Source: Chthoniobacteraceae bacterium (lineage in GTDB: Bacteria; Verrucomicrobiota; Verrucomicrobiia; Chthoniobacterales; Chthoniobacteraceae). Taken from it: a stretch of DNA of 11,804 nucleotides. The stretch spans positions 1 through 11,804 of the forward strand of contig JANNXQ010000164.1 in NCBI GenBank assembly GCA_031409655.1. The letters are read 5' to 3'. The notes beneath the pieces are model-generated. The model had not been told where the DNA came from, did not search any database, and saw only the letters and a program-made list of their open reading frames with translations. Below are positions 1 through 10,573 of the stretch, one piece after another. The stretch's first letter is position 1; each line of letters starts with the position of its first letter. The translations under genes were made by a program, and so were the position numbers.

Positions 1-88
1 GGCTGCGTCCGCCCGTGACCAGGGCGACGGCGTTTTCCTTGAACTGCCGGTCGTAACGCCGACCGGATTTGATGCTGTGATCTGACAT
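1..88 (-). CDS. IS3-family transposase OrfA, N-terminal fragment (HTH_Tnp_1-like), partial
   Basis: Manual translation from ATG at 88 gives MSDHSIKSGRRYDRQFKENAVALVTGGRS..., matching the OrfA start pattern RRY(s/d)xEFKxxAVxLV. It is not in the ORF track because it runs off the window. Confidence 0.85.
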   Translation of the reverse strand, partial: MSDHSIKSGRRYDRQFKENAVALVTGGRS

Positions 89-140
89 GGCTTTGCTTTT
101 CGTCTTTGAAAGCCCTGTCCGCAAAATCGAAGACACTCCA
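1..140 (-). mobile_element. IS3-family insertion sequence, left end (truncated by window edge)
   Basis: The minus strand from 140 reads TGGAGTGTCTTCGATTTTGCGGACA, with the 5'-TG terminus and GGACA core typical of IS3-family left inverted repeats. An OrfA-like ATG follows 52 nt inside. Confidence 0.85.
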
Positions 141-173
141 AACGCCGTTGGCGTTCTCGCCGCGTAACTGTGC

Positions 174-246: not shown

Positions 247-283
247 GAAAGTCCCAAGCTGCCGCGGGCGCGGCGGTGGTCTG
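247..283 (+). promoter_or_regulatory. Bipartite promoter-like motif, copy 1 (GAAAGTCCCAAG-N16-GGTGGTCTG)
   Basis: A near-identical motif occurs at 7702-7665 on the minus strand. Each copy is followed by an ATG exactly 6 nt downstream. Confidence 0.6.
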
Positions 284-289
284 GACGAC

Positions 290-310
290 ATGTCGTTCCT
301 CATTTCATGA
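290..310 (+). other. 6-codon upstream ORF MSFLIS*, stop overlapping the esterase start (ATGA)
   Basis: ATG TCG TTC CTC ATT TCA TGA; TGA at 308-310 overlaps ATG at 307-309. The ORF is seen directly, but its translation is unproven. Confidence 0.4.
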
Positions 311-1878
311 AAGCGGTTTTCTGCGCCGCGCTGGCGCTCGTCGCCTCCGGTGTCTTTTCGTCCGCTGCGGTGCGGCTGCCCGCGGTGATCTCGGATCACA
401 TGGTCCTGCAAGGGGAGGCGTCGGTGGCCGTCTGGGGTTGGGCGGATGTGGGTGAAGCGGTGACGGTCTCGCTCGGTGATCAGGCGCGCTCGACTAAAGC
501 GGACGGAGCCGGGCGTTGGAAGGTGATGCTCGGGAAACTAAAGTCCGCGAGCGAGCCTCAGACGCTGACCGTCCGCGGCACCAATACTCTCACGGTCCAC
601 GACGTCCTCGTGGGTGAAGTGTGGCTGGCCTCGGGGCAGTCGAACATGGAGATGCAGATCAAGGGGAAGCTGCACGGGGCGGTGGACCGGGCGGAGGAAG
701 AAATCGCCGCGGCCAGATTTCCGGCGATCCGGCTCTTCGTGCATGACGAGCCGTATGCCATCTACGAACTGCCGGTCCCGCCATTGCAGCCGTCTGAGGA
801 TCGTCCAGGCAGGTGGCTGGTCTGCTCGCCGGAGACCGTCGCGGGCTTTTCGGCGATCGGTTATTTCGTTGCGCGGGAATTGCATCAGACCCTGGGCACG
901 CCCGTCGGAATCCTCAGCGCGTCGGTCGGCGGGACGCCCATCGAGGCGTGGACCAGCCTCGCGGCGCAGGGAGCGCAGCCGGCGCTCCAGCCGCTGCTGG
1001 GAGACTGGCAAAAGCGCGTGGGGGACTTCGTGCCCGAGCGAGAGCAGCAGACTTTCCTGGAGGCAAAACAGCGCTGGCTGAAAGAACGCGCCGCGGCGCT
1101 CAAACAGCAACAGCCCGCGCCGAAAGCGCCCGCGGCTTTCAAGAATCTCCGCGTGATGACCCCTGGCGCGCTCCTCAATGGAGTGATCGCTCCGCTCGTG
1201 CCTTACACGATTCGCGGCGTGCTCTGGTATCAAGGTGAACGCAACGCGGCGGGTCCCTTCACGCAGCTCTACGGCCGGCAACTGCGGACGTTGATCGCCG
1301 ACTGGCGGGCGCGGTGGGGCGACGAGTTTTACTTTGCGTGGGTGCAGTTGCCCGGCTTTCAGCGCCCGCAAAAACTCCCGAGCGAGCCGACGGGTTGGGG
1401 TGTCACCGTCCGCGATGAAATGCGCAGGGCGCTCGACGTGCCGCGCACGGGCATGGCGGTGACGATCGATCTCGGCGGTGAAAAGGCCGGCCACCCGACG
1501 AACAAAGCCGACTACGCCGCGCGACTCTCGCGGCTCTTGCTGCACGATGTCTATGCGCAGCCGATCGCGATTTGGTCCGGCCCGCTCCTTCGCTCCGCGC
1601 AGCGCGCTGGAGAGAAGATGACGCTCACTTTCGAGCAAGCCGCCGGACTCCGCGCGCAGGAGGGGGAGCTCAAAGGCTTTGCCATCGCAGGCGAGGATCG
1701 GAAGTTCGTCTGGGCGCGGGCAACGATCGTCGGCGACAAGGTGATCGTCTCAAGCGATGCCGTGACCGTGCCCGCCGCGGTGCGCTACGGCTGGGCCGCG
1801 AATCCTACGTGTAATCTGATCAACGCCGCCGGACTCCCCGCCTCGCCTTTCCGCACCGATGAATGGGCCTCCCCGTGA
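307..1878 (+). CDS. Secreted sialate O-acetylesterase family protein (SASA / SGNH hydrolase)
   Basis: N-terminal signal peptide; LPAVISDHMVLQ start; GEVWLASGQSNM (catalytic Ser); GGTPIEAW; GVLWYQGERN; HPTNK (catalytic His); C-terminal VRYGW..NP..NL.N..GLPASPFRTD. Confidence 0.93.
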   Translation: MKAVFCAALALVASGVFSSAAVRLPAVISDHMVLQGEASVAVWGWADVGEAVTVSLGDQARSTKADGAGRWKVMLGKLKSASEPQTLTVRGTNTLTVHDVLVGEVWLASGQSNMEMQIKGKLHGAVDRAEEEIAAARFPAIRLFVHDEPYAIYELPVPPLQPSEDRPGRWLVCSPETVAGFSAIGYFVARELHQTLGTPVGILSASVGGTPIEAWTSLAAQGAQPALQPLLGDWQKRVGDFVPEREQQTFLEAKQRWLKERAAALKQQQPAPKAPAAFKNLRVMTPGALLNGVIAPLVPYTIRGVLWYQGERNAAGPFTQLYGRQLRTLIADWRARWGDEFYFAWVQLPGFQRPQKLPSEPTGWGVTVRDEMRRALDVPRTGMAVTIDLGGEKAGHPTNKADYAARLSRLLLHDVYAQPIAIWSGPLLRSAQRAGEKMTLTFEQAAGLRAQEGELKGFAIAGEDRKFVWARATIVGDKVIVSSDAVTVPAAVRYGWAANPTCNLINAAGLPASPFRTDEWASP

Positions 1879-1900
1879 CCCCGCCGAACCACTCCTAAAC

Positions 1901-3127
1901 ATGAAACCATCCGCCATTCTCACGCCCAGTCGCCTCGCCGCTTGCATCGCAGTTTTCGCCGCGATCCCCGGCGCCCTTGCGGCTGAGCCATTCATTGAAA
2001 AACTCGATCTTTTCAAAGCCGGCGACGGTGGGCACAAGGTCTATCACATCCCCGGCATCGTAGTGACGGCGAAGGGCACGGTGCTCGCCTGGTGTGAAGC
2101 ACGGAAGAAGGGTGGCGATTGGGATGACATTCACATCCTGCTGCGCCGTTCGTCGGACGACGGCAAGACGTGGAGCGAGCCGCAGAGCATCGCGGAGGTG
2201 CCTGGGCCGAAGACGAAGAACCCCTTCTCGCTGCGGATGAAAAACGTCGATCCCAATGACGTGACCTACAACAACCCGGTGCTCATCGCGGATCGCGACG
2301 GCACGGTGCATATGGTCTTCTGCCTCGAATACCTGCGCTGCTTTTACCAGCGCAGCACCGACGATGGGGTGACGTGGAGCACGCCGCTGGAGATCACACA
2401 GACCTTTGAAACGTTCCGGTCGGCGTATGAGTGGAAGGTGCTCGCGACGGGGCCAAATCACAGCATCCAGCTCCGCACCGGGCGGCTCGTGGTGCCGGTG
2501 TGGCTCTCGACGGGCACGGGCGGAAACGCGCATCGGCCTTCGGTCACCGCGACCATCTTCAGCGACGATCAGGGGAAGACCTGGCAGGCGGGCGAGATCG
2601 CGGTGCCCTGCACGGATGAATGGATCAATCCGAACGAAACAGTGGCGGTGGAACTCGCCGACGGGCGCGTGATGCTGAACGTGCGCAATGAGTCGAAGAC
2701 GCATCGGCGGCTCGTGACTGTGAGCAAAGACGGCGCGACGGGCTGGAGCACGCCACGCTTTGATGACGCGCTGCTCGAGCCGATCTGCATGGGTGGACTC
2801 GTGCGCTACTCGCTCGGAAACGGCGGCGGCGCGAATCGCATTCTTTTCTCCAATCCAGACACCCTCGAGCGCGCCGACGGCAATGCCGAGCCGGGCAAAA
2901 ATCGCGACCGGAAGAATGTCTCCGTGAAGCTGAGTTACGACGAAGGCGCAACGTGGGCCGTGAGCAAAACCGTGGAGCCCGGCTGGAGCGCCTACAGCGA
3001 TCTCGCGGTGACGCCGAACGGCATCATCCTCTGCTTCTACGGGCGCGCGGAGAAGGGCGGCTTTGCGGGCGACTGGCTCACGCTCGCGCGCTTCAATCTC
3101 GAGTGGCTCACTGGGAAGCGGGAATAG
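1901..3127 (+). CDS. Secreted GH33 exo-sialidase-like protein (BNR/Asp-box beta-propeller), atypical active site
   Basis: Five Asp boxes (SSDDGKTW, STDDGVTW, SDDQGKTW, SKDGATGW, SYDEGATW), plus NPNE, NVR and AYSDL motifs. Start moved to ATG 1901, which avoids overlap and gives a signal peptide (MKPSAIL...ALA). Confidence 0.9.
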   Translation: MKPSAILTPSRLAACIAVFAAIPGALAAEPFIEKLDLFKAGDGGHKVYHIPGIVVTAKGTVLAWCEARKKGGDWDDIHILLRRSSDDGKTWSEPQSIAEVPGPKTKNPFSLRMKNVDPNDVTYNNPVLIADRDGTVHMVFCLEYLRCFYQRSTDDGVTWSTPLEITQTFETFRSAYEWKVLATGPNHSIQLRTGRLVVPVWLSTGTGGNAHRPSVTATIFSDDQGKTWQAGEIAVPCTDEWINPNETVAVELADGRVMLNVRNESKTHRRLVTVSKDGATGWSTPRFDDALLEPICMGGLVRYSLGNGGGANRILFSNPDTLERADGNAEPGKNRDRKNVSVKLSYDEGATWAVSKTVEPGWSAYSDLAVTPNGIILCFYGRAEKGGFAGDWLTLARFNLEWLTGKRE

Positions 3128-3207
3128 ATCCGCAGATTTCGCAGACTGGCGCAGATCGGGAAGCGCGTGACTTTTTCCTCTGCGAAAATCTGCGCAATCT
3201 GCGGATC
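3127..3207. repeat. REP-like imperfect inverted repeat between convergent genes; possible bidirectional terminator or mRNA-stabilising hairpin
   Basis: Arms 3127-3155 (gatccgcagatttcgcagactggcgcaga) and 3179-3207 are reverse complements at 25 of 29 positions, with a 23-nt loop and three CGCAGA units per arm. Confidence 0.85.
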
Positions 3208-3214
3208 ACTCCGG

Positions 3215-4696
3215 CTACGCCAGCCAGGGCTTCACGACTTTCCCCGCCAAATCGGTGAGCCGGAAATCGCGCCCTTGGAAACGGTGTGTGAGCTTCAGGT
3301 GATCGATGCCGAAGAGGTGCAGCAGCGTGGCGTGGAAATCATTGATATGCACCGGATCGCGGACGATGCCCCAGCCGAGCTCGTCGGTCTCGCCATAGAC
3401 CTGGCCACCTTTGATGCCGCCCCCGGCCATGAAGATGGTGAAGGCATTCGGGTGATGATCGCGACCGCTAACGTTCTTCGTATTCCCCGCGCGATTCTCG
3501 CCGAGCGGCGTCCGGCCAAATTCGCTGCCCCACACGACGAGCGTTTCGTCGAGCAGGCCGCGCTCCTTGAGATCCTTGATCAGCGCGGCGATGGGCTGGT
3601 CGGCCATGCCGGCGTTGAAAGGGAGCTCCTTGTCGAGATTCGAGTGATGATCCCATGACGCGTGGATCACGTTCACGAAGCGCACGCCGCGTTCGACGAG
3701 CCGCCGGGCGAGCAGGCAGTTCGTGCCGAACGAGCGATACTGATTCGGCCCGCCCGCCCGCGCCGCTTTGATCGGCGGGTCTTCGCGCTCCACGCCGTAA
3801 GCCGCGAGCGTCTCGGGCTTCTCGCCTTTCAAGTCGATGAGTTCGGGCGCGGCGGATTGCATTCGGAAGGCGAGTTCGTAAGCGGCGATGCGACTCGCGA
3901 TCTCCGGATCGCGCGCCTGCTCAAAGCGCGCGCGATTCAACTCCGCGAGCGTGTCGAGCCCCGCGCGCTGAAGCTCCGCCGGAAGTCCCGCGGGATTCTT
4001 CAGATTCAAAACCGCATCGCCCTGACTGCGGAAGGAAACGCCGGCATACACCGACGGCAGAAATCCCGATTGACACAGCGACGCGCCACCGCTGGTCCCG
4101 CGGCCATTCGCCAGCACCACGTAGCCGGGCAAATCGCGGGATTCGCTGCCGAGCCCGTAGGTCAGCCACGAGCCAATCGTCGGTAGCCCGAAGGTCGCGC
4201 GCCCGCACTGCATGAGGAGCTGGCCGGGGTGATGATTGAACTGATCGGTGTGCATCGACCGCACCATCAGCAAGTCATCCGCGCAGCTCGCGATGTTCGG
4301 CAGGAGGTCACTGAAATCCATTCCGCACTGCCCATACTTCTTGAAGGTGCGCTGCGAGCCGAGGATGCGCGCGGTCTCCTTTTTGATGAATGCGAAGCGC
4401 ACATTCTTCAGTAGCGAATCCGGCAGTGGCTGGCCGTTCAGTTCGTTCAGCTTCGGCTTCGGATCGAAGAGATCGAGCTGACTCGGTGCGCCCTCCATGA
4501 AGATGAAGATGCAATTCTTCGCCCTCGGCGCGAAGTGCGGCGGCTTCGGGAACAGCGGATCGGCGGAAGCTCCTGGCGCCGCAAGCAGCCCCTCCGATTG
4601 CAGCATTGACGCCAGCCCGAGCATCCCGAGCCCGCTCGCCGCGGTGGTAAAAAAATCTCGCCGCGTTTGTTGGATGGCTTGGTCGATGGGGTGCAT
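3215..4696 (-). CDS. DUF1501 domain protein (alkaline phosphatase/sulfatase-like fold), Tat-exported
   Basis: Twin-arginine signal TRRDFF; family motifs FMEGAPSQLDLFDPKP, CLLARRLVERGVRFV, WDHH, EFGRTP, GRDHHP, FRLTDLAG. It lies directly downstream of the DUF1553 gene, the usual pairing. Confidence 0.93.
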   Translation of the reverse strand: MHPIDQAIQQTRRDFFTTAASGLGMLGLASMLQSEGLLAAPGASADPLFPKPPHFAPRAKNCIFIFMEGAPSQLDLFDPKPKLNELNGQPLPDSLLKNVRFAFIKKETARILGSQRTFKKYGQCGMDFSDLLPNIASCADDLLMVRSMHTDQFNHHPGQLLMQCGRATFGLPTIGSWLTYGLGSESRDLPGYVVLANGRGTSGGASLCQSGFLPSVYAGVSFRSQGDAVLNLKNPAGLPAELQRAGLDTLAELNRARFEQARDPEIASRIAAYELAFRMQSAAPELIDLKGEKPETLAAYGVEREDPPIKAARAGGPNQYRSFGTNCLLARRLVERGVRFVNVIHASWDHHSNLDKELPFNAGMADQPIAALIKDLKERGLLDETLVVWGSEFGRTPLGENRAGNTKNVSGRDHHPNAFTIFMAGGGIKGGQVYGETDELGWGIVRDPVHINDFHATLLHLFGIDHLKLTHRFQGRDFRLTDLAGKVVKPWLA

Positions 4697-4700
4697 GGCG

Positions 4701-7658
4701 TCACTCGCGGGTGATGAATTCGTCGGTGTTCAGGATGATCCGCACGGTGGCGGTCCAGGCGGCGGGCTCGGCTTCTTTGTCCGAAGCTTGTGCGTAGTGG
4801 GTGCGGGCCTGGCCGAGGAGCTTTTTCAATGCGGCGAGCTCGCGCGGCTGTGGGGGGCGGGCGACCGCGAGGCGGAAGGCGCGGGTAAGGCGGGCTTCGT
4901 CGTCGGCGAGCGGTTCGTCGAGGAGGCGTTTGGCCATCGCTTGCGCGGCTTCGGCGAAGGTCTGTGCGTTAAGCGTGGTGAGCGCTTGAAGCGGCGTGTT
5001 GGAGACGCCGCGTTTGATGGCGGCGAGGTTCGCGTCGGGGCAGTCGAAAGTGGTCAGGTCGGGATGCGGCGCGGTGCGTTTGAAGAAGGTGTACATGCCG
5101 CGGCGGTAGCGGTCCTCGCCGGTGGCGTCGGTCCATTTGAAGTTGTTCGCGTAGCTGAGCGCGGCGATCTCCGGTGGCATCGGCGGGAAGACGCTGGCGC
5201 CGCCGATCTTTGGCGAGAGCAGTCCGCTCGCGGCGAGGTGCAGGTCGCGGACGATCTCGCCTTCGACGCGGATGCGGTTCTGGCGCGCGAGCAGTTGATT
5301 GAGCGGATCGATCTCTTCGAGTTCCGGCCGCACTTCCGAACGCTGGCGGTAAGTGGCTGAGGTCATGATGAGGCGGATTATCTCTTTGCGGCTCCAGCCG
5401 CGGGCGATGAATTCGCTGGCGAGCCAGTCGAGCAATTCGGGATGCGTCGGTTTGTCCCCGCGCACTCCGAAATCTCCGAGCGTGCGCACGAGCCCCTCGC
5501 CGAAGAGCTGCGCCCAGAACTGATTCACGATCACGCGCGGCGTCAGCGGATTCTCTGGACTCACGAGCCAGCGCGCAAGGTCGAGGCGATCGGGCGTCTT
5601 TCCGTAGCGCGCCGCAATGGGCGGAAGCACCGCGAGCGTGCCGGGCGAGACTGGATCACCGGGTTGCAGGAACTCTCCGCGATGCAGCACCTTCGTGTCG
5701 CGGGGCTGTGTGCGTTGGGTGAAGGTGCGGACGTCGAGCACGGGCGCGGGCGGCGCTCCGGCTTTGGCGGCGGCCACTTCCGCCGCAGCGGCGCCGGCCG
5801 TGGGATCGACCTTCACCAGCCAATCCACGAGCGTCTCCTTGTTTTCGTTCGTCCACTTTTCCGAGCCGGTGCCGACGAGTCCCCGCACGGCCGGCGGCGC
5901 GATGCTGGTGGTCGATTCGCCGACGAGCGCGACGAGCCGGAAGCGACCGATGGTGTGCTGCCCCTTTCCAAAATGCTGCGCGAGCGAGATCGCGATCTGC
6001 GGCGTCGCCGCGGTGTCGAGCGGGCGGGTGAAGTAGAACCTCGCGTGATGCGGCTTGTCCGTCTGCGTCGCGATGCCCCAGCCCGTCTCCGGCTTCTCAT
6101 CGAGCGCGCCCTCGATCGATGCGCCCTTCTGCGTGAAATCGGCCACGGGTGAATGCAGGCCGACGAGTTCGCCTTTCGCGGCATCGGCGCCGGTGCGCAC
6201 GGTGATCTTTGAAAGGAAGAATTTGCCGTCCGGCGAGCGACCGCAGCCACCTTTCGGCAGAGACGGATCGGGCAACACTTCGAGTTTCACGCCGCTGATG
6301 AGCCCGGGCGGCAGATCGGCGACGATCGCATAATTCTCCTTCAGCGACTGCGCGCCGCTCGCGAGCCACGATCCATCGTCGAGCCGCTGAAACTCCGCTC
6401 CAGCCTCGCTGGCGACGCTCTTCACCTCCAGCGCTTGCTCGCGCGTCTTTTTCCCCTCTGCCGCGCTGAGCCGCGCAGTCATGTCTTTCTCCCAATCGAG
6501 CAAGCTCGCCCCGAGTCCGTCGCGCAGCTTGTCGAGCTTTGCCTCCAGCGGTTTGAGCCGGGCCACGTGCGGCGCGTTCGCGCGTTCGTAGTCGGCAATC
6601 GCGGTCGCACTCGTGGGCATGGTGGCCTTCGTCTCGTCGGCGTTATTGAAGAAGGCGAAGAGCTGGTAGTACTCGCGATGCGTGATGGCGTCGTACTTGT
6701 GCGTGTGGCAGCGCGCGCAGCCGACGGTGTGCGCGAGCCAGACGCTGCCGGTGGTCTCGGTGCGATCGAAGGTGGCCTCGACGCGGAACTGCTCCTGATC
6801 CGTGCCGCCTTCCGTGTTCGTGAGCGTCTGGCGGTGAAAGGCGGTCGCGAGTTTTTGCTCTGCGGTGGCGACGGGCAGCAGATCGCCGGCGAGTTGTTCG
6901 ATGGTGAATTGATCGAACGGCAGATCGCGATTCACGGCGTCGAGGACCCAGTCGCGAAAGCGCCACGCATCGGGCCGCGGCCGGTCCTTTTCGTAGCCAT
7001 CCGAGTCCGCGTAGCGCGCGCGATCCAGCCAGTGGCGGCCCCAGCGTTCGCCGAAATGCGGGGAGGCCAGCGTGCGCTCCACGAGCCGCTCGTAGGCGTC
7101 GGGCGCGGGATCTTTCGCAAAGGCGTCGGCTTCGAGCGGAGACGGTGGCAGCCCGAGCAGATCGTAATACACGCGCCGGATGAGCGTGTAGCGATCCGCC
7201 TCGGCCGCAGGTTTGATCTTCTTCTCCGCCAGCTTCGCGCGGACGAAATAGTCGATCGCGTTCTCGCCCGCCGGGACCGTCGGTTTGCGGACCGGCGCGT
7301 AAGCCCAATGCACCGTCCATTCCGCGCCCGCCGCGACCCACCGCTTCAGCGCCTCGATCTCGGACGGAGCGAGCGGCTTCTTTTTCTTCGGCGGCATCTG
7401 CTCGTCGGGATCTTTCGAGAGGATGCGCGTGATCAGTTCGCTTTTCGCGAGATCGCCAGGCACCACCGCGGTCGCGCCGCTCTCGAGTTCCTTGAAGAGA
7501 TTCTCCCGCGACGTTAGCGCGAGGCCGCCCTTTTTGTCATCGGGTCCGTGGCATCCCAGGCAATGCTCAGCGAAAATGCGCTGCACGTCGGGCTCGGCGG
7601 CGTGAGCCGGAGCGGCGAGCGCGAGCAGGATGGCAGGGAGGAAATGCGGGCGGCGCAT
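4701..7658 (-). CDS. Planctomycete-type cytochrome c protein (PSCyt1 + DUF1549/PSCyt2 + DUF1553/PSD1)
   Basis: Signal peptide; heme motifs CLGCH and CARCH(THKYD); HWAY, GERWGRHWLD, PTHPELLDWLA, SATYRQ, TPLQAL and EFITRE motifs; central coiled-coil plus beta-sandwich insert. Confidence 0.95.
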   Translation of the reverse strand: MRRPHFLPAILLALAAPAHAAEPDVQRIFAEHCLGCHGPDDKKGGLALTSRENLFKELESGATAVVPGDLAKSELITRILSKDPDEQMPPKKKKPLAPSEIEALKRWVAAGAEWTVHWAYAPVRKPTVPAGENAIDYFVRAKLAEKKIKPAAEADRYTLIRRVYYDLLGLPPSPLEADAFAKDPAPDAYERLVERTLASPHFGERWGRHWLDRARYADSDGYEKDRPRPDAWRFRDWVLDAVNRDLPFDQFTIEQLAGDLLPVATAEQKLATAFHRQTLTNTEGGTDQEQFRVEATFDRTETTGSVWLAHTVGCARCHTHKYDAITHREYYQLFAFFNNADETKATMPTSATAIADYERANAPHVARLKPLEAKLDKLRDGLGASLLDWEKDMTARLSAAEGKKTREQALEVKSVASEAGAEFQRLDDGSWLASGAQSLKENYAIVADLPPGLISGVKLEVLPDPSLPKGGCGRSPDGKFFLSKITVRTGADAAKGELVGLHSPVADFTQKGASIEGALDEKPETGWGIATQTDKPHHARFYFTRPLDTAATPQIAISLAQHFGKGQHTIGRFRLVALVGESTTSIAPPAVRGLVGTGSEKWTNENKETLVDWLVKVDPTAGAAAAEVAAAKAGAPPAPVLDVRTFTQRTQPRDTKVLHRGEFLQPGDPVSPGTLAVLPPIAARYGKTPDRLDLARWLVSPENPLTPRVIVNQFWAQLFGEGLVRTLGDFGVRGDKPTHPELLDWLASEFIARGWSRKEIIRLIMTSATYRQRSEVRPELEEIDPLNQLLARQNRIRVEGEIVRDLHLAASGLLSPKIGGASVFPPMPPEIAALSYANNFKWTDATGEDRYRRGMYTFFKRTAPHPDLTTFDCPDANLAAIKRGVSNTPLQALTTLNAQTFAEAAQAMAKRLLDEPLADDEARLTRAFRLAVARPPQPRELAALKKLLGQARTHYAQASDKEAEPAAWTATVRIILNTDEFITRE

Positions 7659-7664
7659 GGCGGG

Positions 7665-7702
7665 CAGACTACCCCGCGCGGGCTTGGCGTCTTGGGAGTT
7701 TC
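7665..7702 (-). promoter_or_regulatory. Bipartite promoter-like motif, copy 2 (GAAACTCCCAAG-N17-GGTAGTCTG), probably leaderless
   Basis: It ends 6 nt before the ATG at 7658 and matches the copy at 247-283 at 11/12 and 8/9 positions. It contains a TAGTCT -10-like hexamer. Confidence 0.6.
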
Positions 7703-10513: not shown

Positions 10514-10573
10514 TGGAAAGCGGTGGGCAGAATCCTCGCGTGGATCCTTTTGTTAAGGGAATTCGCCGGACAC

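Follow-up and report, generated by a model that had tools for sequence, protein, structure and literature searches.

Introduction

Bacteria of the Planctomycetes-Verrucomicrobia-Chlamydiae (PVC) group carry many copies per genome of an exported module of unknown function built from DUF1501 and PSCyt1/PSCyt2/PSD1 proteins, for which a carbohydrate role has already been proposed from carbohydrate-binding modules and sulfatase neighbours (Kamneva et al. 2012, PMC3542564; He et al. 2017, PMC5615132). In the portions of these two papers and of PMC4452313 used here, no regulator of the module is proposed; the main text of PMC3542564 contains neither "sigma" nor "promoter", and PMC5615132 does not contain "sigma". 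Here we analyse a stretch of 11,804 nucleotides (nt) from a Chthoniobacteraceae genome (contig JANNXQ010000164.1 of assembly GCA_031409655.1; the whole stretch is called the window), in which a DUF1553-DUF1501 pair with this same two-gene architecture lies convergent with an esterase-sialidase pair. Each pair is headed by a copy of a two-box motif, termed site A before the esterase and site B before the DUF1553 gene, and we argue that both copies probably belong to the dispersed regulon of a sigma factor of the extracytoplasmic function (ECF) type encoded on contig C166 of the same genome, a regulon enriched in DUF1553/DUF1501 operons.

Within the group descriptions of PMC7826278 that we used, the closest known groups are ECF289 and ECF226, with the same -35 and a different -10. 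ECF289 resembles the present system in its predicted autoregulatory -35 CCCAAGGA (CCCAAG in both window sites and in several promoters of the sigma genes themselves), its A/T-rich upstream element and its single-pass anti-sigma encoded at +1. It differs in having the -10 CGTCTxA, where we find G[G/A]T (the CGT form stands before 0/43 DUF operons), in having a vWA+DUF3520 anti-sigma, where we find a 201-residue partner without vWA and a sigma with Lys in place of Asp84, and in being 100% proteobacterial, whereas the present sigma is from Verrucomicrobiota. Like our system, ECF226 includes Verrucomicrobia and has a single-pass anti-sigma at +1, and paralogs here of 40-45% identity have a vWA anti-sigma with N-terminal homology to the C166 anti-sigma; unlike our system, with its conserved promoter, dispersed regulon and lack of vWA, the group is reported without conserved promoter or context. 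A comparison with ECF-group promoters, raised in a preliminary description of this DNA, thus shows a -35 shared with ECF289 and a -10 that differs.

We also relied on the specificity code of Todor et al. 2020 (PMC7776599), in which the residue at the Asn84 position sets bases -13/-12 and autoregulation serves to find promoters, as it does here; the main text, as far as we used it, mentions neither Verrucomicrobia nor the DUF families, whereas in the case described below paralogs differ by a natural Asp-to-Lys rewiring. In the literature we consulted on DUF1553/DUF1501 and on ECF factors and Verrucomicrobia, neither this promoter class nor the regulon is described, and Todor Datasets S1-S2 and the ECF group tables may hold the motif.

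Two copies of a degenerate, probable promoter motif

The strings previously reported at 247-292 on the plus strand and 7702-7656 on the minus strand were confirmed, with boxes identical at 11/12 and 8/9 positions, spacers of 16 and 17 nt, and 6 nt to an ATG in both copies. The elements of the two sites are:

253..258, plus strand: -35 box CCCAAG of site A, predicted from sequence as the ECF promoter of the esterase-sialidase operon
275..282, plus strand: -10 box of site A, GGTGGTCT, 16 nt past the -35 box
7691..7696, minus strand: -35 box CCCAAG of site B, predicted from sequence as the ECF promoter of the DUF1553-DUF1501 operon
7666..7673, minus strand: -10 box of site B, GGTAGTCT, 17 nt past the -35 box and 7 nt before the ATG, including a TAnnnT hexamer at -13

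The downstream box followed by 6 nt and an ATG occurs exactly twice in the 6.85-Mb, 63% GC source genome (labelled G000; the window is its contig C164), both times within the window, and the 12-mer occurs three times. Sites A and B are identical at 19/21 positions, a level reached by 7/6000 random pairs of operon-head regions, and 0/3267 other operon heads match either site as well as the two match each other. Genes were called with a hexamer model built for this analysis (5303 genes), and an operon head is absent or wrongly placed where the gap is below 45 nt or the start was miscalled, as on C53, where a site falls inside a call that is too long.

Site B was found before 6/6 of the closest DUF1553 orthologs, at 6.9-11.8 bits. 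In same-genus genomes G002 and G003 it reads CCCAAG-N17-GGTATTCT, 7 nt before the ATG and with a different spacer sequence, while the ortholog in four further genomes is preceded by CCTAGC, CCTAAG or CCCGAG and then, after 16-17 nt, by GGTT or GGTC. The proposal that GTCTG forms the -10 core did not hold, as orthologs show GGTATTCT, GGTTTCCC, GGTTCACC and GGTCTCTC instead. Because orthologs keep CCCAAG-N16/17-GGT while the GAAA..T and GTCTG flanks vary, we take the former, and not the 12-mer plus GTCTG, to be the functional core. With a relaxed pattern we recovered a third G000 copy before an RND membrane-fusion gene, also present in G002, a near copy ahead of another DUF1549 gene on contig C177, and a copy in G066 immediately upstream of an ECF sigma gene.

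Narrower or different formulations were tried and for the most part rejected. A regulon of the exact motif has just 2-3 copies in the genome, and its strict pattern is at family background; GTCTG as a -10 in a sigma-E-like register lacks a common -35 at a distance of 15-17 nt, and the orthologs show TTCT; a general promoter class made up of CAAG and TAnnnT has no positional peak. One further candidate, a GAAA-CCCAAG subclass, gave 9 genome matches against 4 and 4 in controls, and its GAAA is not retained in orthologs. For an RNA element there is no Rfam match at E<=1, and the sites share no structure, since site A folds at z -2.0 and site B does not fold (z +0.6). That one promoter arose as a local copy of the other is not supported: the flanks and spacers cannot be aligned and blastn finds no copy.

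An ECF sigma factor predicted to read the motif

The candidate reader (G000:C166:3116-3673) is a 185-residue protein with sigma2 and sigma4 domains only, above the cut-off of TIGR02937, and is 66% identical to the G066 sigma that has the motif upstream. Its closest named relatives are from Chthoniobacteraceae and its relatives are Verrucomicrobiota; the ortholog in Chthoniobacter flavus Ellin428 (L249) is 90% identical. Orthologs are present in 102/151 family genomes (Chthoniobacteraceae-type Verrucomicrobia) and 16/29 genera; among 300 phylum genomes we found only paralogs of 36-45% identity. De novo sampling of 15 regions upstream of sigma orthologs returned a T-rich run, YYHAAG, a gap of 16-17 nt and GGTTAT, and this self-promoter was recovered in 23/25 held-out orthologs at a score of at least 8 bits. 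When the 42 sigma-domain genes of the genome were compared, the C166 sigma had the best site (13.9 bits; next 10.5).

The residues of the sigma factor point the same way. Lys occupies the RpoE-Asn84 position in 45/45 ortholog matches (G000 and one duplicate included), and Asp occupies it in all 31 (6 + 25) paralog matches (4/29 paralog loci, not matched by residue pattern, were dropped). The RpoE register that places Lys there is presumed. The position was mapped via Todor numbering, and the C166 sigma was also aligned to SigW. In the part of Todor et al. 2020 used here, Dataset S3 gives Lys84 a preference for GA (0.19), GG (0.18) and GC (0.13) at -13/-12 and Asp84 a preference for CG (0.62) (PMC7776599); published mutagenesis ties Lys at this position to G at -13. 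Upstream of the Asp paralogs, YTAA-N16/18-CGT occurs in 21/25 and the GGT/GAT form in 0/25; judged from these alignments, the code, which is independent of the motif search, fits the GGT/GAT boxes and separates the Lys and Asp sigma types. The motif thus has the marks of an ECF-type promoter, as the preliminary description had allowed: two boxes at 16-17 nt facing the gene start and weak on the reverse strand, conservation of the same motif upstream of an ECF sigma gene, and -13/-12 bases that agree with the Asn84-position residue (Lys with G[G/A], Asp with CG).

The adjoining gene (C166:3676-4281) encodes a 201-residue protein that has no Pfam hit and no vWA domain and contains a single segment of moderate hydrophobicity (1.43, residues 84-102). 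Its N-terminus shows homology to a vWA anti-sigma (E 6e-8), and the protein is predicted to be a single-pass membrane anti-sigma holding the C166 sigma inactive. Separately, the ECF226-like paralogs with vWA anti-sigmas (L323-L351, L095-L099) have a conserved self-promoter of their own, YTAA[G/T]-N16/18-CGT.

Enrichment before DUF1553/DUF1501 operons

To score operon heads, we used a matrix of 16 self-promoters from other genomes, leaving out G000 and the ortholog locus L060, at a threshold of at least 8 bits. The genome contains 34 DUF1549 genes, and 13/43 heads of DUF1553/1549/1501 operons passed, against 117/3408 others (Fisher p 2.4e-9), while reverse-strand and wrong-spacer controls on the same 43 heads gave 0, 1 and 2. 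The spacer profile peaked at 16-17 nt, and an unbiased gapped-word search of the DUF heads, with the window contig excluded, ranked CTAA-N15-ACG and CTAA-N17-GGT at the top. The result was replicated in relatives, where 14/52 DUF1553 heads passed and controls gave 2, 2 and 7 (4/59 loci without a start and 3 operon-internal ones were dropped), so that the enrichment upstream of DUF1553/DUF1501 starts, which the preliminary description had proposed to look for, was found in the genome and in its relatives. In genome G075, 4/20 DUF heads passed, with 0, 2 and 2 in controls (1/30 without a start and 9 internal dropped). Outside the family, the simple pattern stood before 0/18 DUF heads, with 2/18 just at 8 bits (5/23 internal dropped), and two further outside-family control genomes had no DUF1549 gene. 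DUF1501 is expanded in 15/16 genera with the sigma against 2/13 without, genera that are kin and not independent, a pattern compatible with a link to the sigma and not proof of one. The motif, its conservation and enrichment, and the residues and distribution of the sigma are direct observations.

The excess over controls amounts to about 25-38 heads, and the regulon would comprise roughly 25-40 dispersed operons. Pfam labels of the 40 top non-DUF heads include three GDSL esterases, two each of PQQ-type propellers, PSCyt3/DUF1592-type proteins, ThuA-like proteins and sulfatases, and one each of a DUF7133 haem protein, DUF1080, Gfo/Idh/MocA, DUF6807, a xylose-isomerase-like barrel and BNR; S12, resolvase, transposase and MgtE look like noise. 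Heads with a signal peptide, by a crude call, are enriched about 2.5-fold among motif heads (p 1e-5). Held-out paralogs of sugar-related families are slightly enriched (5/46 against 114/3339, p=0.02), whereas sulfatases, tried as targets, are not (4/55, p=0.12). The idea that the motif hints at a glycan-related role is thus weakly borne out, by the exported esterases and sugar-oxidation enzymes among the top non-DUF heads and by the held-out paralogs, and is not borne out by the sulfatases.

Two other elements were seen before DUF operons. A palindrome, CTCAC-N8-GTGAG, precedes three DUF1553 operons (G000:C187:3575, C8:3132 and C70:26082) and seven heads in all, and is likely the operator of another regulator. 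A TTTGTCCA box is common to two other ECF genes (C172, C266) and two DUF1553 heads (C126, C144); other DUF operons may thus answer to a second ECF class.

How firmly the two sites belong to the class

The two window sites are not equally secure. The base A at the fourth -10 position is found in two self-promoters, L060 and L227, the first being identical to site B in both boxes. Resting on its conservation before orthologs, site B is quite likely a functional site of this class. Site A has G at the fourth -10 position, where the self-promoter consensus is T (T 36, C 2, G 1 of 39), and lies 110 nt downstream of an insertion-sequence (IS)-like repeat, in a lineage-specific arrangement; no variant of it was seen in contigs of four DNA runs where covered, the runs not being independent. 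Of the heads with a signal peptide that reach 9-11 bits, some 45% exceed what the controls yield (20 against 11), and because of this proportion, raised by its closeness to site B, we consider the membership of site A plausible and lean slightly towards it. Among 3451 operon heads, the matrix of 16 self-promoters ranks site B 99 and site A 160, and a matrix including site B orthologs ranks them 31 and 66; both score below 6 bits under a matrix with the flanking T/A tracts. The suggestion that one alternative sigma serves both operons stands in that a likely reader can be named, the C166 sigma, and has to be revised in that the regulon is dispersed and dominated by DUF operons, with site A as a lineage-specific candidate.

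Several observations weigh against assigning the sites to a C166 regulon. Sites A and B are weak members of the promoter class: neither has the T that 36/39 self-promoters hold at the fourth -10 position, and under a matrix of 39 self-promoters site A (7.2 bits, rank 177) and site B (6.5 bits, rank 233, both of 3451) are within noise. Site A is not conserved before esterase orthologs (11 in other genera, none with a head site). A majority of DUF heads, 30/43, score below 8 bits, and in de novo Gibbs sampling 42 DUF heads neither yielded the motif nor beat random sets. Among the controls, a 12/13 spacer scores 14/25 on self-promoters, owing to A/T tracts, and it is the 21/22 spacer that reaches 7/52 in relatives. 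Across the 151 family genomes the strict window-derived pattern is at background (31 matches against about 32 in the reversed control), as is to be expected because it is one variant of a degenerate motif. Genome-wide, the excess at a score of at least 9.8 bits is modest, 65 heads against 37-46 in controls, and about half or more of the individual matches would for that reason be chance. Finally, cross-reading by paralogous sigmas with the same -35 specificity is possible.

The symmetry of the two leaders, too, is only partial, because the ATG at 290 does not start the esterase but opens a short out-of-frame open reading frame (ORF) that overlaps it:

290..310, plus strand: ORF of 6 codons, not in the esterase frame, its stop overlapping the esterase ATG at 307 (ATGA)

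The claim that both starts are leaderless is accordingly not supported. The ORF is possibly a leaderless coupling ORF or a chance occurrence, such an overlap at the same distance being found at 30/3269 operon heads. Leader-ORF coupling as a feature of the regulon was rejected, since site A alone shows it among motif sites with a longer leader (1/117).

Alternative readings

The alternative that survives best, although we regard it as unlikely, is that the housekeeping sigma (sigma70/RpoD) uses site B as a leaderless promoter with TAGTCT as its -10, CCCAAG being the site of another factor or of an overlapping second promoter and site A being unrelated or a chance match. In this genome TAnnnT peaks at -13/-12 before ATG (48 and 54 of 2665 heads against about 10), site B has TAGTCT at -13, G002 and G003 have TATTCT there, and the departure of genus g1 from the ECF consensus is exactly what creates the hexamer. 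Housekeeping promoters here show TTG, though, and site B has CAAGAC and no TTG at the -35 place 17 nt upstream (a consensus scan found none); orthologs in other genera have GGTT or GGTC without TAnnnT, yet keep CCTAAG or CCCGAG at 16-17 nt; and site A lacks the TA. Site B may also be a dual promoter, carrying TAGTCT where the housekeeping leaderless -10 peaks, an arrangement compatible with ECF control by the C166 sigma.

Somewhat less probable still is that the class is real and that both sites are read by another sigma, either the paralogs with vWA anti-sigmas (C103, C112/C113 fragments) or the other Lys84 sigma, C187:97570. CTAAG, the usual -35 of the paralogs, is frequent in DUF heads, and positions 4-6 of the window -10 boxes depart from the C166 self-promoter. 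The paralogs, however, have Asp84 and use CGT, a form absent from all 43 DUF heads, C187:97570 differs in its sigma4 helix and lacks a good self-site (6.4 bits), and the G066 ortholog of the C166 sigma has site B's two boxes in its own promoter.

The preliminary description had gone further and treated 307-7658 as a single four-gene module, so that the four genes would be one acid-sugar-use unit under a dedicated two-target regulon. Sites A and B are indeed mutual best matches among 3267 heads, but gene order is not kept in relatives, the motif class has dozens of further members, and synteny largely refutes the module, which we now think improbable. In the closest relative, G001, the sialidase and DUF1501 orthologs are still convergent, the esterase is absent, and the DUF1553 (90%) and DUF1501 (97%) orthologs lie apart on contigs C479 and C444, each beside other genes and with DUF1501 not following DUF1553. 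G002, G018, G022 and G024 have the DUF pair with other neighbours and without sialidase or esterase in the stretches examined, and in G003 the sialidase ortholog is located elsewhere. In three same-genus genomes the esterase has no ortholog beyond E 1e-150; of 11 orthologs in other genera, 8 sit behind a different sialidase. None of these 11 has a head site, and five sialidase orthologs reach at most 5.3 bits; a site of 10.4 bits at esterase ortholog L238 was rejected, as it lies inside an 821-residue open frame and not ahead of a gene. An esterase ortholog follows another DUF1553-DUF1501 pair in G022, and a sialidase ortholog lies behind another DUF1501 in G019, which would fit a loose functional neighbourhood. 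The four genes do not form a conserved unit.

That both sites are chance matches without promoter function is hardly credible: their scores under the largest self-promoter matrix are low and many windows were scanned, but site B is conserved before 6/6 orthologs despite a diverged spacer, and the class is enriched.

Genes and other features of the window

The earlier gene labels (SASA esterase, BNR sialidase-like, DUF1501 and PSCyt1-DUF1549-DUF1553) proved correct by Pfam:

307..1878, plus strand: sialate O-acetylesterase-like (SASA) protein, PF03629, with a signal peptide-like N-terminus
1901..3127, plus strand: BNR/GH33 sialidase-like beta-propeller, Pfam BNR_2, with His replacing Arg of the RIP motif (alignment to 1eur)
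3127..3207, no strand: long hairpin between the convergent operons (inverted repeat I8; -45.8 kcal/mol, z -6.4)
3215..4696, minus strand: DUF1501 protein with a twin-arginine-like leader, PF07394, E 7e-149
4701..7658, minus strand: PSCyt1-DUF1549-DUF1553 protein (Pfam), first gene after site B

The hairpin is likely a terminator common to both convergent operons. In the sialidase-like protein the motif reads YHIP, and because His replaces the first catalytic Arg, as it also does in 4/5 orthologs, its substrate may be other than sialic acid. The DUF1501 protein gave only a faint arylsulfatase match in the PDB (E 0.044).

Window positions 1-141 (minus-strand ORF from 88) are the end of a repeated IS-like element with matches on eight other contigs. 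Going by its N-terminal peptide, the element presumably belongs to the IS3 family; it has no Pfam hit. It sits inside a REP-like repeat, the intact form of which is found at G000:C259:49331-49412. Just past the REP remnant, a perfect TATAAT without a TTG -35 stands at 180-185 on the plus strand and could be a second esterase promoter. A weak site of the same type as A and B occurs at 10527-10561 on the minus strand, before a cupredoxin/DUF7133-like operon at 10513-7731, scoring 4-9 bits depending on the matrix. Across the whole genome, the top upstream words lack a Shine-Dalgarno signal, leaders are rich in C and T, and TTG near -37 with TAnnnT at -13/-12 forms a visible leaderless sigma70 signature.

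Discussion

From these observations we infer transcription from the two sites, the identity of the sigma that reads them, binding by the anti-sigma and the existence of a signal. Both copies would belong to a two-box class, YYHAAG-N16/17-G[G/A]T, read by the C166 ECF sigma, which the anti-sigma encoded beside it would keep inactive. On an envelope or periplasmic signal the anti-sigma would let the sigma go, and the freed sigma would amplify itself via its own promoter and switch on some 25-40 dispersed operons, comprising about a third of the DUF1553/DUF1501 operons and other exported enzymes. Site B would be a long-standing, conserved member whose transcript is nearly leaderless, and site A a lineage-specific candidate before an esterase placed there by this genome alone.

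More speculatively, and at present more doubtful than not, a Chthoniobacteraceae-specific sigma may have arisen by duplication of an ECF factor with a vWA anti-sigma, a single Asp-to-Lys change moving its -10 from CGT to GGT/GAT. It could then have become the master switch of an expanded planctomycete-cytochrome repertoire (DUF1553/DUF1501, DUF1592) along with exported esterases, PQQ-type and Gfo/Idh/MocA oxidoreductases, DUF1080 proteins and ThuA hydrolases, that is, of periplasmic oxidative glycan processing, with the esterase-sialidase operon recently wired in.

The local four-gene story contributes little to the significance of these findings. They supply a promoter for relatives of ECF226, a group for which none that is conserved is reported in the description we used, and a natural example in which a published specificity code tells two paralogs apart. 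Few unexplained gene families in Planctomycetes and Verrucomicrobia are as large as the DUF1501/PSCyt modules, and a named sigma, anti-sigma and promoter consensus would give this gene family of unknown function a switch that is open to experiment.

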